A DNA stretch of 63,922 bases, filler included, from Candidatus Woesearchaeota archaeon CG1_02_57_44 (lineage in GTDB: Archaea > Nanobdellota > Nanobdellia > Woesearchaeales > CG1-02-57-44): the NCBI GenBank assembly GCA_001871415.1. It is 3 parts of 3 records of this genome, joined end to end, with 100 filler letters (N's around TTAATTAATTAA, not from the genome) between each part and the next. Parts side by side here need not be neighbours in the genome. Positions count along the whole stretch, not along the records: positions 1 to 23,061 come from MNWW01000073.1; positions 23,162 to 44,039 come from MNWW01000004.1; 1 more part is not named here. One strand, given 5' to 3'. The position numbers were made by a program. Of this stretch, positions 12,001 to 24,000 are shown one piece after another. Within the stretch, counting starts at the first letter, position 1. Each line of letters begins with the position of its first letter.

Positions 12001-15000
12001 TCATGCACTACCGCACAGGCAAGCCAGTGAAGGTAATCGCGGCCATCCATCTGGAGGTGAGCCGTCTCATCGGAGCGGAGATACTGGAGGAAGCCGAGCA
12101 CTCCTGCCGCATCAGGTGCATAGCAGGACAACCGCTCGATGACCTTGACGCCATGCTGCGCAAGATATACCACCAGCTGCGTCAGGTGGCGACCGACTTC
12201 GGCAATGGCCTCAAGGAGCGCCAGTGGGACCTCTTGGCAGCCACCGAGGAGAAGCATGACACCATAACGAAGTTCACGAGCTACTGCCTGCGCCTGCTCA
12301 ACAAGCAGGGCGCGGTAGGGACTGCTGCTTCATTGCAGTATGTCAGCATCAATGCGGTAGACATCATCGTTGATGCGTACAAGTACGCCGCGCGCGACCT
12401 GGTCGAGCACAAGCCGAAGATGAGCCCCAAGGCGGCAGAGATGATGCTGCGCATCTGCGATTTCACCCAGGAGTTCGCTTCGACTGCGTTCTCAGAGAAA
12501 TCAGCGCACGCATCAGAGCTGCTGCGAAAGCGCGATATCTTCCTGCGCGACCTGCGCGAGAGAGGCCCAAAGCTCACCGGGTCTGAGCTGCTGGAGGTGA
12601 CGCGCCTGAGCCAGGTGCTGCAGGTCATGTGGGAGCTGCTGGGAGCGAGACTGGGGATGATGGATGCGATAAAGTAATGCATTACTGAAGTCAAGCATTA
12701 CTGAAGTGAAGCATTACTGAAGTGAAGCATTACTGAAGTGAGGCATCACTACGGGAGAACGCCATCACTCCGCCCAGCTGACGTTCTGCAAGCAGAGGGT
12801 CAGGTGCCGGAGCAATACAGCCAGCAAGGTGCAGATTCGGGATGGCAGGATTGAACGCAAGGCCGGCCAGCGCGTCGTAGTCCGCGACGAGCGCCTGCGA
12901 GAGCTGCCTGAGATGCGGCTCATGCAAAGCGTCCCGAAGGTGCAATAGCAGCGGCGCCCAGCCGTAGTGGAGGATGCGACCTTCTTGGCCAAAGAGTTCA
13001 GGCACGGGAAAGCTTAAGCAGCATTCCCAGCAATCATTGACGCTGACCTCACCACGGTTGATCGGATCGGCGAACTCCGTGATGAGCAGCAATTCCATGT
13101 CTGAGCGTCGCATCTGCCCATGGGATTCATCCACCGGTCATCACCGTGAAGATCTTGGCCAGCAGCGCCTCAAGGTCTGATTGGCGCATATTCAGGCCCA
13201 GTGCCCCACCACCTGATTCCAGTTGAATTTCCATTCCATTCCTCAATGCTCTGATTACATCGACAAACGCCGACACGCATCACTTCTCCGCAGCCCTGCG
13301 CTCACGCATCCCGTGCGTGATAGCCTCATACCCCCAGCCCCCGACGCGCTCGAAGGTCTGCCGGGACATGCAAGCAAGAGTGCATGTCCAGAGTATATCA
13401 GTGATATCTTCTTGATTACTGATCATCCCCTGCGTCCTGATACCGAAATCAGGGCCCATCTGCAACGTGCCATCGCGGACCTGGCGGCGGATATCATATG
13501 CCTGGCGGGCCAGATACATCTGGGAGAAAAACTTCCCGTCATAGACATAGATAGGCAGCATCTCCCGCAGAGCTGATTCCTGCTCAAAGCGAGCCACCAC
13601 ACCGTCAGGATCCTCTGCCACACCCCGGTATCCGGTCCCATCATTCGCGCACAATGCCAGATAGAACGCCCGCAGCACATCCTCTGGCGATAGCTCCGTG
13701 CACGATGACCAATGATACTGACTGACCAGACCATAGAGCGCATCCCCCATAGGCCTTACGCGCTCGAGCACATCAGCGTCAGCAGTGCGGGCGATTTGAT
13801 ATAACCAGAAGGGAGCAGACTCGAGCATCCATGTCTCGGTCCCGACGATCCCATCCAGTATCCGATGCGCAGTCAGCCCATGCGGCGTTGGCGCCAGGAG
13901 AACAGCGGCTTGCAGATTTGTCCGATAGGGATTGAAGAGCAAGGTCTGGCCGAGATCCCAGTCACCTATGAACGCATCATATAATTCCTCTGCCCGTACT
14001 GGCTCGAGCAACCGGGCCGCAAGAGACAACAACGGCAGCCATTCGGCGTGGAGAACAGGCCGATGCGCACCGAAGAACTCCGGAACCTTGGTATCCCACC
14101 AGTATTGCCTGCAATCCTCGACAGTGACAGCACCGTTGTTGATATCTGCGGCAGCCAGCCGGGTCAGGAGCAGCTGCTCATCAGAATGCCGCAGGGTCTG
14201 CGCAGGCTCAGTCATGCGGCATCACCGTCAATGCTGATGGCCGGACGCGATGATGAAGCACCCGTTGCGCATCATAGCTCACCACGGTCTCCCCCTCACG
14301 CTGCGGGAAGTCAGGTCGCATACCAAAAGCGAGCGCATCACGATAATCCTCACGACGCAGACCACCGACCTGATAGCAATAGTGATGTGCCCTCCGCTGC
14401 GCCGCCACATCTTCGGATGCTAGTGCCTGCTGGATGTCGCAGCCAAAGAACTCCTGGAAGGGGGCAGCTCCATAGATAGTGGGGATGAATGTCGGGACCC
14501 AGAACGAAGGCGGCAGAAAGTCTATCCGCATAAGATCCGTCGGGACGCCACATTCATCGATCACCATCCGTTCGGCATAGCCATCCCATGCCTTTCGCTC
14601 CACATCGATGATGCCGGCGATATGCTGCTTGCCTCGCAATGCTTCTTCACCCGCCACCCTCTCGCCAGCAAGAAGGCAACAGACATAATCACGTACCTCA
14701 CCAATCCTCTCGTCCTGCAGTATAGTCCTTTGCAGCGTAGCCACAATGGCATCCTTGGATACATGCGCACCGGCGACTATGTGCAGCTCGGCTGCGAACA
14801 GGACATCATCCAGGAACGGATAGTATGGTGAAGGTGACGGCGCAGACTGCTGCGCATTGATGAGGCACCCTATCAATTGCTCGGAAGCTGCGCCATCCAA
14901 GTGAAGGTATATGCGCATGAGATACGGCTTCCATGCAGGGAGCAACGCTCTGCCGGCATACCCCCACAGCCCTGCGTCCTCTTCGTAGCTCCAGCACTGC

Positions 15001-21000: not shown

Positions 21001-24000
21001 AGCGAGCCGGCGTTTCGTGGAGGAGACCTCTGCGTAGAGCTTGTTGGGGCTGAGCAACTGCCCTTTCTCGCTGAGGACATCCTCAAAGACCTGTGCTGTG
21101 AGCGCGCCTTCCATGACCAGCCCCTTGGTGATAGGGATCTCACCGCGGAACGCGCGCACCGCGATATGCCTGATGCTCTCCACATCGATGCAGCGCAGGA
21201 GCTGGAAGGGATCCTCATGCACCAGTTCGCTGAGCAACGCAAGGGTCTGGTAATGGCCGCTCACCGTGTAGTGGCAGGCGCTCAGGCGTCGTTGGATCTG
21301 ACCGGCCAGGGAGCATTCATCGGCAGGATCACCCGGAAAATGGCTTGTGACGAATGAACCGACGTTGCTTGAGATGCTACGCCGGTCGATGGAGTGAGCA
21401 GAGAAGCCAGGGACTGCATCAGGACGTTTATTGAGCTCAAAGGGCCTCGCGAATGCCACGACCTTGTGCCCCTCCGCGCAGATCTGCGATAGTCCTTCTC
21501 GCATCGGCTCCAGGAGGGGGGGACTGCAATCATGCAAATCATCGATAAGGAACAGGTAGCGCAGGTCCAAGGGCGCGCCGGGCGGCATCGTGCAGGACCA
21601 TCGAGCCTGGCCTGATGCGCGTCGCAGGAGATAGTCACGCATCCGGTCGCCGTCCTCAGGTATCCCGAAACGCAGCTCATCATTGAGCTCCTCGGCCGTG
21701 AGCGTGACCAGGGCGTATCCTTTTGTCTGTGGATACAGGCCCATCTCATGGTCGAGCACGATCTTGGTCCTCAGCCAGGTCTTTCCGGTTCCCGGATGCC
21801 CATAGATGAGGACAGGCACCTGCATGGCCAAAAGCTGCTCCAGGGCAATGCCTTGCCGTCCTGCCTCAGTGCCGACCACCTGAAGCGGGATCTCCGAGAA
21901 GAAATGGGCGCTGTAGCGGGCGTGTTCCTCAGAAGTGCGATCAGAGGGGAAGAGCGGCGAGTGCTGGACGCGCATATCCAGGGAGCGACGAAGGGCCCTG
22001 CGGGCATCATTGCCCGCGTTGGCTGTGAGACCCCGACCATACGCGGGATCATTGAGCCAGAGTAGTGCAGGATTCACCTTGCAGCAGACCCGCTCTCCTC
22101 TGTGGTCGGGCTTGTCGCGCATGCTGACCTGCGCGGCCTGCGGCGCCAGTCTATGACGGAAATATGAGAACGCCCCGTCCAAAAACCCGCTCGGGATGAT
22201 GAAGTGCACATCCTGGCCTTCCAGGGACGCCATGACCTGCGGGGACGAGAACATGCCAAGGACCTGATAAGCGCGATGGGCCATCAGGAATCTGTTCTCG
22301 CTCAGCACATGACCTTCGTGCTCCAGGGTGGTCATGATATCGCCAGAGGCCTTGATGTGCGATTCGATGATGCCATAGAGATCCTGCGCGTCACGCAAAG
22401 CCATGCCAGACTCCCTGCAGCCAGCGACATACCATTGCTTGAAGTTCTGCCATTTGCGCAATGATGCGTCACGCTCGTCTGACCCCTCCGGAAAGATGCT
22501 ATAGTGATGGACAGGCCAGAGTTCGCTGGGACCCCCGCAGACCGTGCGCAGTCCGGAGGTGACAAGGACATTCCGGTCAAGGCAGAGTCCGGCGAGGGAC
22601 ACATAGTCATCGAGGGATATCCGGCGATGAGCATCATGGTGCGCATCGATACGCAGGGCCATCTCGCGCAATTGGGCGCGAAGCTCCTCATCATGAGGAT
22701 GCGAGAGCAAGAGGGCATAGTGCATGGTGCGCAGCGAATCAGCCGCCATCAGCAGCGCAGGGCGTTGTTGCATGATGGCCGCCTCATGGAGCGCGTGCGC
22801 CTCGCCAGCTGTGTCGAGCATCGTGCCCTGAAGGCCGGTGCGCTCGCCCTTGGTGTTCGTGCGCGTCGGACCGTGGGTATAGAACACGAAATGGGAATGT
22901 ACATTGGGCTCAAGCTCTCGGGGTTCGGGGAGTTGCTCTTGCAGCGCATGCTCCAGCAGCTGACCCATCCAGTCCTTGCTCCTCTTGATGAGCTCAAAGA
23001 AGAAATCATGAGGGTCATACGTCGTTCCTTCGACAGGGAACCTGAAATCATTCCGGCGGAANNNNNNNNNNNNNNNNNNNNNNNNNNNNNNNNNNNNNNN
23101 NNNNNTTAATTAATTAANNNNNNNNNNNNNNNNNNNNNNNNNNNNNNNNNNNNNNNNNNNNAGGAGAACGAAAGCGGATAAGGACGCAACCATCAGAAGA
23201 ACATCGCGCCCATGAGCATGGAACAAAGGAATTCGGGGAAGGCGAAGCGTGTCCGGAATACAGGCGCACACGCTTATCTTGCAGCGTCGCCCCACCAGAC
23301 CCCATGCAAAAGGATTATGTACCTCAAGCACCAAAATCCCTTTCGTCGCGGTGCAACAACAGGCAACTTCGCTCAGAACCCTCTAGAAGAATAAAAACAA
23401 AAAACAGAATATTTATCAGCAAATTTTGCATAAAATATGCAAAAATAGGCAATAAATATATATATACGATTGCCTTCCGTGCCCCTATGCTCCAGACAAT
23501 AAGCATCGAGAACTTCCTATCCATACGAGACAAGCTCACGCTCAGCCTTGAGGCCAGCGCCAGCAAGAAGAACCTGCAGAACACCATAGCCCTGCCCAAG
23601 AAGGATCGGCTGCTCAGGAGCGTCGCGCTCTACGGCGCCAATGCCTCAGGAAAATCCAACATCATCAAAGCGACGCTATTCATCTGGGACATGGTGAAGA
23701 ACTCGCATGCCTTCAATATCGACAGTACCATCCCAAGGACGCCATACAAACTCGACGAGGCATGGGCGGGCAAACTCAGCAGATTCGAGCTGACATTCTA
23801 TCATAAGAGGATACGGTACAGATACGGATTCTCCTGTGATGACAAGAAAATAATCGATGAATACCTCTACCATTGGCCAAAGGGCAGGGAAGCACTCATC
23901 TTCAAACGGAGCTCAACCACGGACTTCACCTTCATCAAAGACAAGCGCCAACAACAGCTCATCAAGAAGAGGCTCACCCCCAATGTCCTCTATCTTTCCA

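Follow-up and report, generated by a model that had tools for sequence, protein, structure and literature searches.

The window analysed here is a stretch of 63,922 nt joined from three parts of the genome of Candidatus Woesearchaeota archaeon CG1_02_57_44, and its first part ends in a cluster of genes, g00528 to g00534, all called on the minus strand (Table 1). The two large genes, g00534 and g00533, encode ATPases, and the small paralogous genes behind them are referred to as cassettes. A preliminary description had placed all of them in one overlapping operon. The common strand and the overlaps stand, with 1, 11, 8 and 8 nt shared between neighbours from g00533 through g00529, but 183 nt without overlap lie between g00534 and g00533, and the gap between g00529 and g00528 holds a stub, which the DNA of g00531 matches over 32 nt at 87.5%. 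The genes are preceded by GGAGG- or GGTGA-like motifs, and by codon score the annotated frame of each cassette ranks first among the three frames on that strand, at values below the genome mean. The regulator-like gene that converges on the array end, here and in relatives, may be PhoU-like. As noted before, no defence context is seen around the locus; PADLOC returned only generic matches at the level of TPR, HEAT and NACHT, and NCBIfam no specific family.

Table 1 Features of the locus, with positions along the window.
Feature	Position	Strand	Description
g00534	19585..23061	-	1158 aa; fused copy; 5' end cut by contig end
g00533	17173..19401	-	742 aa; short (split) ATPase half; ends without F-x-H motif or sensor
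g00532	16184..17173	-	cassette 1, 329 aa; most diverged module of the set
g00531	15130..16194	-	cassette 2, 354 aa
g00530	14208..15137	-	cassette 3, 309 aa, GTG start; best-preserved module, E 8e-39
g00529	13280..14215	-	cassette 4, 311 aa
stub, 35 aa	13127..13234	-	truncated sixth cassette start with family motif; in g00529-g00528 gap
g00528	12730..13134	-	last cassette, 134 aa; module only; stop falls within a 16-bp tandem repeat
histidine-phosphatase (PGM/CobC-like) fold, g00533 aa 78-378	18268..19170	-	structure comparison to 6e4b
NACHT NBD, HD1 and first winged-helix helices, g00533 aa 379-742	17176..18267	-	structure comparison to NOD2 5irn
AbrB/MazE-headed regulator-like gene	11730..12677	+	Pfam MazE_antitoxin E 4e-4; convergent on array end
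5' DNA repeat of g00530	14998..15086	.	81% identity over 89 nt to 16043-16131 in g00531
strain-difference block	16955..17701	.	covers g00533 3' end and g00532 module; 29/40 differences in one contig

The two STAND ATPases are paralogues, as described before (27.5% identity over 600 aa), and g00533 carries the motifs AEMGSGKS (Walker A), IDGLDE (Walker B) and TTR (sensor-1 arginine), with GHPGTGKT (Walker A, aa 421) and IDDLHD (Walker B) in g00534. A family alignment of 36 rows keeps the Walker A lysine and the Walker B aspartate in 35 rows each and the sensor arginine in all 36. The Pfam NACHT matches of g00533 and g00534 are indeed weak, at 17.2 and 16.9 bits against a gathering score of 26.7 bits, which the homologue P0023 clears at 36.2 bits. 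A model of g00533 (pLDDT 86, pTM 0.81), made on the strain variant P0001 that differs by 5 aa, could be aligned over its NACHT part with NOD2 (VIA Z 14.7, rmsd 4.9, 284 aligned) and with NLRP3 (Z 14.2), and by this predicted fold g00533 has an NBD, then HD1 and winged-helix helices. On NOD2 the alignment runs to residue 558 in one entry but to 607 in another, and on NLRP3 to 564, which leaves the split point unfixed by structure alone; in a profile search for the cassette module, the variant P0001 was not among the matches. The second ATPase, g00534, has the complete winged-helix motif F-x-H as F-L-H at aa 718-720 (His720 at ~20904), scores weakly with the module HMM (E 0.007) and continues into repeats at aa 844-1081 (TPR_12, E 2e-10); it is a fused single-chain copy with its own, fixed TPR sensor. 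TPR_12 matches g00534 only, and the name NACHT-TPR, originally given to both ATPases, fits this one and not g00533. Residue 1 of g00534 pairs with residue 23 of g00533, and therefore only ~20 aa are probably missing from the truncated protein.

An N-terminal domain of ~400 aa had been overlooked in both ATPases. Both g00533 and g00534 carry there a histidine-phosphatase fold, and the g00533 model matches 6e4b with VIA Z 15.9 and rmsd 2.7 over 190 aligned residues. An aminoacyl-tRNA-synthetase-like motif considered for this domain was dropped after His_Phos_1 matches appeared, and all ESM Atlas leads for the g00533 N-terminus stayed below 0.9. The catalytic cluster of PGAM5 consists of two histidines and two arginines, R104, H105, R152 and H230 (PMC5501728). 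The full cluster was not found in the window, which has Thr-His, Arg and Pro: g00533 keeps His87 and Arg152, with Thr for the RHG arginine and Pro329 for the second histidine, and the proline recurs in g00534. Among the 36 family rows, the first histidine is kept in 35, the second arginine in 36, the second histidine in 26 and the RHG arginine in none, its position being G, A or S in 34. Phosphatase activity is doubtful in the window copies, because the RHG arginine is replaced family-wide and the second histidine has here become proline.

The paralogue family had been described as having practically no relatives. Single-sequence searches came back empty, with self-matches only and no relative in 40 genomes, a sample without any genome of the same family. 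The orphan status itself was lost once profiles were used: that of the five paralogues picks up the ~110 aa at their N-terminus in 9 of 400 further genomes from the order, and that of the ATPase N-terminal domain matches 44 representatives. The paralogy of the cassettes was confirmed (33% over 195 aa between g00529 and g00531), and g00532, which had seemed to join them only in the alignment, is linked by g00530 at E 4e-9.

Natural fusions reveal what the cassettes are. In the single chain P0068, a NACHT of the split family (aa 213-557) is followed by the cassette module (aa 565-700, E 5e-46), and the module or its motif also stands behind NACHT in P0030, P0027, P0029, L019, L022 and L038. Because these fusions join both in one chain, the module is the winged-helix tail and HD2 of a NACHT protein: each cassette begins with the last helix, the wing and the His-bearing helix of the winged-helix domain plus HD2, precisely the part that g00533 lacks, and a variable region follows. 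The cassettes are thus not the new, unrelated component class proposed earlier but separately encoded C-terminal halves of the NACHT protein itself. With a profile built from 8 fused forms, F-x-H aligns to NLRC4 (4kxf) residues 420-490, the histidine landing on His443 by counting, and to NLRP3 as well, both alignments being weak as single domains (i-E 0.7-13). Position 1 of Pfam NLRC4_HD2 lands on the F-x-H histidine in L022 (E 6e-4), and this family matches 2 of 36 module rows, with a best E of 1e-4 that does not reach the cut-off. In NLRC4, His443 locks ADP, and the H443L variant is constitutively active (PMC7583971). The corresponding histidine is kept in 8/8 fused chains versus 23/48 cassette rows; it is arginine in all five window cassettes, in which Arg-x-Ser-Asp is invariant.

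An AF2 model of g00530 aa 1-150 reached pLDDT 87, and the isolated module was most similar to generic helical proteins (best Z 7.3). Foldseek with this module gave nothing at E<=1e-3, and PDB profile searches with module alignments or one fused sequence were uninformative. Predicted as a complex, g00533 aa 405-742 and g00530 aa 1-135 yielded a median of 0.51, with one control at 0.45, a result counted neither for nor against binding. No recognisable repeat region was found in any of the five window cassettes, whose C-terminal parts have no counterpart among other cassettes (best E 0.2), and no NTPase family match in any free cassette scanned; ESM Atlas leads for the g00530 C-terminus were all below 0.9. 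A KPQGY-type tail, taken as a strict pattern, is present in 10 of the 43 complete cassettes and is not significant in the window proteins (g00530, E 1.4).

The arrangement is conserved among relatives. Downstream DNA is available at 13 distinct loci, and in every one a cassette comes directly after the short phosphatase-NACHT gene, behind which stand 1-6 cassettes, each with a separate start. The junction frame is 0 in 4 loci, -1 in 7 and +1 in 2 (two frames counted by hand), and an ATG lies within -17..+15 nt of the ATPase stop in 10 of 11 junctions examined. Across loci the cassettes end in HEAT, TPR, pentapeptide or unrecognised regions (19, 1, 1 and 15 without informative match, respectively, for the 36 cassettes outside the window); the same three repeat types are found in fused chains, and one cassette contains a receiver domain. 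The distribution is patchy, at ~1-2% of the sampled genomes of the order (8/400 and 4/400), with carriers scattered across families and upstream genes that differ from locus to locus; a scan of viral sequences with P0048 found no relative. Left out of these counts were L035 and L036 as duplicates and L024-L026 and L028 as apparent duplicates, and the pattern matches L027, L031 and L032, without any family match, were dropped as chance. The conserved neighbour of the arrays is a regulator-like gene and not a defence gene.

Modules are 58% identical within a genome (69 pairs) versus 28% between genomes (1055 pairs), and the nearest neighbour of 38 of 48 modules lies in the same genome; those of the window are only 22-49% identical among themselves. 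Up to 280 nt of 5' DNA is repeated between cassettes at 70-92%; these repeats in L029 extend across the gene junction, and they are lacking from the short ATPase gene. Strain variation in g00532 comprises 13 non-synonymous versus 4 synonymous codon differences, and full-length variants were found for g00533 (4/5 members), g00531 (2/2), g00529 (3/4) and g00532 (4/7). The contigs of four runs list no indels and contain no rearranged joints, the latter a weak result as contigs drop rare variants. No RNA data set was listed among those holding the locus, which has no bearing on its expression. In a quick NACHT tree, fused forms appear at several places (4 changes, at least 2 forced).

The head gene encodes the histidine-phosphatase fold, the NBD, HD1 and the first winged-helix helices and then stops, and the rest is encoded by downstream genes with their own starts. 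That the architecture is split is virtually certain. We incline, if only slightly, to read the whole as a split NLR-like NACHT/STAND switch that an array of exchangeable C-terminal halves completes in trans, most likely serving defence or another conflict, where binding and function are what we infer. Assembly in trans is in itself quite probable and, given such assembly, defence is rather likelier than other signalling. Of the original proposal, the NLR-like locus and the duplicated, fast-changing family that serves its STAND switch find support, with the immune role as the inferred part. A cassette would dock on the ATPase half and complete the nucleotide-binding module, supplying the ADP-locking residue as in NLRC4 and APAF-1 (histidine, or arginine in all five here). 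A ligand on the variable region would release the lock, and nucleotide exchange and oligomerisation of the ATPases would follow, with clustered phosphatase-fold domains as the output. If cassettes dock on one head, several sensors would therefore be read by it, and arrays might expand and be remodelled through unequal recombination between similar 5' ends. In its boldest form, which we hold at a little less than an even chance, small DPANN-type archaea run a modular NLR in which separately encoded winged-helix-tail/HD2/sensor subunits, any one of several, complete a phosphatase-fold-NACHT head in trans; they bear the autoinhibitory lock and are shuffled by recombination at conserved 5' ends, so that a single switch has an expandable recognition repertoire, with an effector type not reported for STANDs.

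The same split assembly could instead have a signalling job, such as reading host contact or phosphate or metabolite status, with cassettes that sense cellular or host proteins and a phosphatase-fold domain that tunes a regulator. The AbrB-headed regulator gene converges on all 10 arrays with a visible downstream end, in 9 of them immediately and in 1 with a histidine-kinase gene in between, and 7 of 9 array-linked regulator genes tested, the window's included, form one branch (84/93) although the genome has 5 paralogues; this tree is poorly resolved, and the clustering is not significant (113/500 shuffles as low). The fused NACHT-module genes L019, L022 and L038 adjoin a Ser/Thr kinase and the same regulator type, the receiver domain in one cassette would fit, and non-defence STAND clades are interspersed with defence clades according to Lee et al. 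(PMC13581612). The scattered occurrence in so few genomes, the varied upstream genes and the rapid turnover of cassettes speak against signalling, as does the different N-terminal domain of P0068, and we regard this explanation as unlikely. By its motifs, the P0068 domain may be nuclease-like.

Quite unlikely in our view is that the array of this genome is a remnant, decaying or repurposed, in which cassettes act alone as decoys or not at all and only the fused g00534 works; the family-level result is untouched by it. This genome's copy may nevertheless be atypical or decaying, because all five cassettes have arginine for the lock histidine and the phosphatase domain has two altered residues. 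A remnant would be consistent with the stub, with a last cassette (g00528) that consists of the module only and ends in a tandem repeat, with window modules that have lost the N-terminal wing consensus and the histidine, and with their low mutual identity, the low codon scores, the excess of non-synonymous differences in g00532 and the unmatched C-terminal parts. Yet the four cassettes of 309-354 aa are still open and tightly overlapping, full-length strain variants exist, the contigs of four runs list no indels, Arg-x-Ser-Asp is invariant, and recognised repeats are also missing from 15/36 cassettes elsewhere. Cassettes might also be silent donors, or recombination, frameshifting or read-through might link them to the ATPase, yielding one conventional single-chain NLR at a time, in analogy to orphan toxin tips. 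The common 5' repeats, including those spanning the junction in L029, and the multiple fused forms in the tree are compatible with this, but homologous recombination cannot fuse a cassette to the short ATPase gene because that gene lacks the shared repeat. With all three junction frames present, cassettes having their own starts and no joints in the contigs, itself weak evidence, we judge this explanation improbable.

NLR-type switches usually are one chain, because the ADP-holding winged-helix histidine and the sensor move with the ATPase. If true, a conserved natural cut through the winged helix would mean that two proteins can make up the module and that many sensors can feed a single switch, would open autoinhibition and sensor specificity to simple subunit swaps, and would add a phosphatase-fold domain to the STAND outputs; it may also explain the varied recognition repertoire kept by tiny symbiont genomes. 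Networks of many sensors and one executor are known from NAIP-NLRC4, plant helper NLRs and ZAR1 with ZRKs, and these combine whole NLRs or unrelated adaptors, not NOD halves. A literature search returned no description of a split phosphatase-NACHT system; the tables for the 589 clades of the key STAND survey (PMC13581612), which may list the clade, were outside its reach. According to its methods (PMC13581612), that survey discards C-terminal regions shorter than 400 aa, and surveys with such a minimum would miss sensors of this kind.

The domain shares its fold, the phospho-acceptor histidine and the second arginine with the histidine phosphatase superfamily (CobC, PhoE, PGM, PGAM5), but the RHG arginine is replaced family-wide, the second histidine is gone from both window copies, and it has a large helical insertion and a NACHT fusion. 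The antiviral STANDs Avs and bNACHT have a tripartite layout (PMC10907252), and an enzyme-like N-terminal domain, a NACHT-type STAND core and variable C-terminal repeats (TPR, HEAT, pentapeptide/propeller) are common to them and the family described here (PMC13581612). They are usually one chain, whereas in this family a cut within the winged helix divides the chain, and several alternative C-terminal halves stand in tandem: the ATPase chain of g00533 lacks the complete winged helix, the lock histidine and a repeat sensor, while g00534, with F-L-H and TPR_12 in the ATPase chain, resembles the single-chain systems. The N-terminal domain differs too, being a histidine-phosphatase fold, and the word phosphatase has no occurrence in the main text of Lee et al. 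(PMC13581612). Animal NLRC4, NOD2 and NLRP3 have the same NBD-HD1-WHD fold, F-x-H aligning weakly with His443 of NLRC4, and unlike the split system carry lock histidine and sensor in one chain. The nSTAND2 two-gene system, a predicted counter-invader STAND with an NTPase domain in each gene, is likewise spread over adjacent genes, whereas the cassettes here are without an NTPase domain and are arranged as arrays (Kaur et al. 2021, PMC8195603).

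The seven genes g00528 to g00534 are located on contig C33 at the positions assigned in the preliminary description, and its gene overlaps and BLAST figures were reproduced. Contrary to the single overlapping run proposed there, the two ATPase genes, g00534 and g00533, are separated by 183 nt, and of the NACHT-TPR architecture ascribed to both ATPases, the TPRs were found in g00534 and not in g00533. Furthermore, we noticed a 35-aa stub bearing the family motif that had been missed. The host genome (1.53 Mb, 82% complete) contains five matches to the N-terminal module of the minus-strand paralogues g00528 to g00532 (termed cassettes), every one at this locus. 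The window joins C33, C36 and C37 by N spacers, and no part of it past position 23061 neighbours the locus. Two short tandem repeats lie at or just past the 3′ ends of minus-strand genes.

Coordinates of features in the window and in the related locus L039
Sequence	Feature	Position	Details
Window	Tandem repeat	8977-9103	21 bp x 6
Window	Tandem repeat	12679-12750	16 bp x 4.5; contains the stop of g00528
Window	Stub with family motif	13127-13234
Window	Variant site	~15070	SDLDVLLA in g00530, SDLEALLA in variant P0014
Window	Block of strain differences	16955-17701	3′ end of g00533 and module of g00532; 29 of 40 differences
Window	N spacer	23062-23161
Window	N spacer	44040-44139
L039	Cassette	7464-8756	response-regulator receiver domain
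L039	Histidine-kinase-like ATPase gene	12312-13091	between array and regulator

The paralogues, previously thought to have practically no relatives, are not an orphan family. Searches with single paralogue sequences retrieved no relatives; with a profile of all five, matches (E ≤ 0.01) appeared in 9 of the 400 other genomes sampled from the order, always via the N-terminal ~110 aa. For the ATPases, a two-sequence profile of the N-terminus retrieved 44 representatives among 1.84 billion (37 of 636-806 aa, three of 1218-1323 aa and four fragments), and a 36-row profile matched 8 of 400 genomes of the order, seven of which also possess the module, the eighth match being cut by a contig end. In a sample of the phylum, the ATPase was present in 4 of 400 genomes, all four with arrays and every match within the same order; these counts come from samples of incomplete genomes. 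The family motif also occurs in records labelled Candidatus Woesearchaeota, Nanoarchaeota and uncultured Methanosarcinales archaeon (labels unchecked).

In the relatives, the module starts with S-L-L-Y...F-x-H-x-x-F/Y-x-E-F-F-x-A, and this opening stretch is also found behind NACHT within fused chains. The homologue P0068 carries the NACHT of the split family (aa 213-557) and the module (aa 565-700) in one chain; P0030, L019, L022 and L038 provide further fused chains with the module, and at least the motif is present in P0027, P0029, P0062 and g00534. Among the short ATPases, only P0035 gave a module match, a borderline one (E 0.01). A profile of eight fused chains aligned the motif to NLRP3 and to positions 420-490 of NLRC4, weakly as a lone domain (i-E 0.7-13), and in this weak alignment the motif His, the putative ADP lock, falls on NLRC4 His443; it is also the first position of the Pfam NLRC4_HD2 match in L022. 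According to PMC7583971, His443 in NLRC4 and His438 in APAF-1 make contact with the beta-phosphate of ADP, and the NLRC4 variant H443L is constitutively active. From the fused chains, the NLRC4/NLRP3 alignment and the NLRC4_HD2 match, we conclude that each cassette consists of the severed winged-helix end, HD2 and a variable region. This identity rests on sequence, because the isolated module, for which a confident fold was predicted (pLDDT 87), gave no distinctive structural match in fold searches. The lock His is present in all eight fused chains and in 23 of 48 cassette rows, among which the L017 end and the L018 start are probably one gene. P0068 begins with a different ~200-aa domain instead of the phosphatase fold, presumably nuclease-like as judged by eye from motifs, and has HEAT repeats in addition to the module.

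The N-terminal domain of the ATPases has a histidine-phosphatase fold, as indicated by Pfam His_Phos_1 matches in homologues, a profile match to CobC (E 3e-8) and structure comparison of g00533 aa 78-378 (Z 15.9); the AlphaFold2 model of P0001, which differs from g00533 in 5 residues, reached pLDDT 86. Residues 379-742 match NOD2 (Z 14.7) and NLRP3 (Z 14.2). The canonical catalytic cluster comprises two His and two Arg (PMC5501728). In the family alignment, the RHG Arg is replaced throughout (36/36), whereas the second Arg is invariant (36/36); 35 of the 36 rows retain the first His and 26 the second, a site at which g00533 and g00534 have Pro. In a quick tree, the phosphatase domains of g00533 and g00534, which have a compositional bias in common, pair as sister branches with an SH-aLRT of 100; their NACHT parts fail to group in a tree with long branches. 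Quick trees of the two domains also conflict for P0027/P0029 and P0049, for example, and this disagreement hints at domain exchange in the ATPase family.

In all 13 distinct loci with DNA past the ATPase stop (the window, L014, L016, L017, L020, L021, L023, L029, L030, L033, L034, L037 and L039), a cassette directly follows the short ATPase; one to six cassettes are visible per array, several arrays being cut by contig ends. Scanning 36 cassettes from outside the window gave HEAT in 19, TPR in one, pentapeptide repeats in one and no informative match in 15. The TPR half is a free gene in L021, the counterpart of fused g00534, as is the pentapeptide half in L037, the counterpart of fused P0027/P0029. 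Wherever the downstream end is visible (10/10 arrays), the array converges on an AbrB-headed regulator gene. L023, from genome G131 (marked unpublished), contributes one locus, one array end, one of 11 junctions, two cassette rows and two scanned cassettes, and G131 is counted in the paralogue-profile and ATPase-profile tallies; the conclusions are independent of it. In a second locus type (L019/G069, L022/G161 and L038/G375), a fused canonical NACHT-module-HEAT gene is followed by a Ser/Thr kinase gene and converges on the same kind of regulator; G161 carries both types. A KPQGY-x-P-type C-terminal tail is common to cassettes of L029, L033, L017/L018, L015, L020, L021 and L034, with a looser version at the end of fused chains, and in L029 a DNA repeat covers this tail and the start of the next gene.

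Module identity is 58% within genomes versus 28% between genomes, and DNA repeats among cassettes extend up to 280 nt (70-92%), which shows local duplication or homogenisation and not co-evolution, because kin share history. A 5743-nt contig from another run differs from the window at 40 places; of its codon differences in g00532, 13 are non-synonymous and 4 synonymous, and in g00533 the corresponding numbers are 7 and 6. The block where its differences cluster looks like one exchanged unit across both predicted partner surfaces, albeit in a single contig at depth 6, and relaxed and positive selection are inseparable in these data; no indels or joints were listed in the strain contigs compared. 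The P0014 form of the variant site is that of the stub, making gene conversion between cassette starts possible.

The split architecture is the sole part of our model that we count as demonstrated. Beyond it, we lean, with slightly better than even confidence, towards a mechanism in which a cassette would join the head (the short ATPase) in trans and bring both lock and sensor; ligand binding would free the lock, and the head would then oligomerise and its phosphatase-fold domain act, in a defence or conflict role. An identical assembly serving signalling appears unlikely. All five cassettes of the window have Arg in place of the lock His, and that the array of this genome is decaying or a decoy is an explanation to which we give quite a low probability. 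Silent cassettes, or cassettes fused to the ATPase, are highly improbable: the ATPase-cassette junctions are in frame 0 in four cases, -1 in seven and +1 in two, and an ATG lies within -17 to +15 nt of the ATPase stop at 10 of 11 junctions examined, which argues for separate, coupled translation of head and cassettes and not for a conserved frameshift.

No account of this split system was found in the literature searched, a scope outside which the clade tables of PMC13581612 and the original Avs/bNACHT papers lie; in the portion of Lee et al. (PMC13581612) consulted, the term 'split proteins' occurs a single time, in the methods on Avs7/Dsr1, and is not elaborated. The locus is not placed under any named family, because g00533, unlike single-chain NLR-like proteins, has neither the F-x-H motif nor a sensor in its own chain, and the catalytic cluster of the ATPases is incomplete compared with histidine phosphatases. 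The way of working proposed here would resemble that of Avs/bNACHT proteins and animal NLRs.
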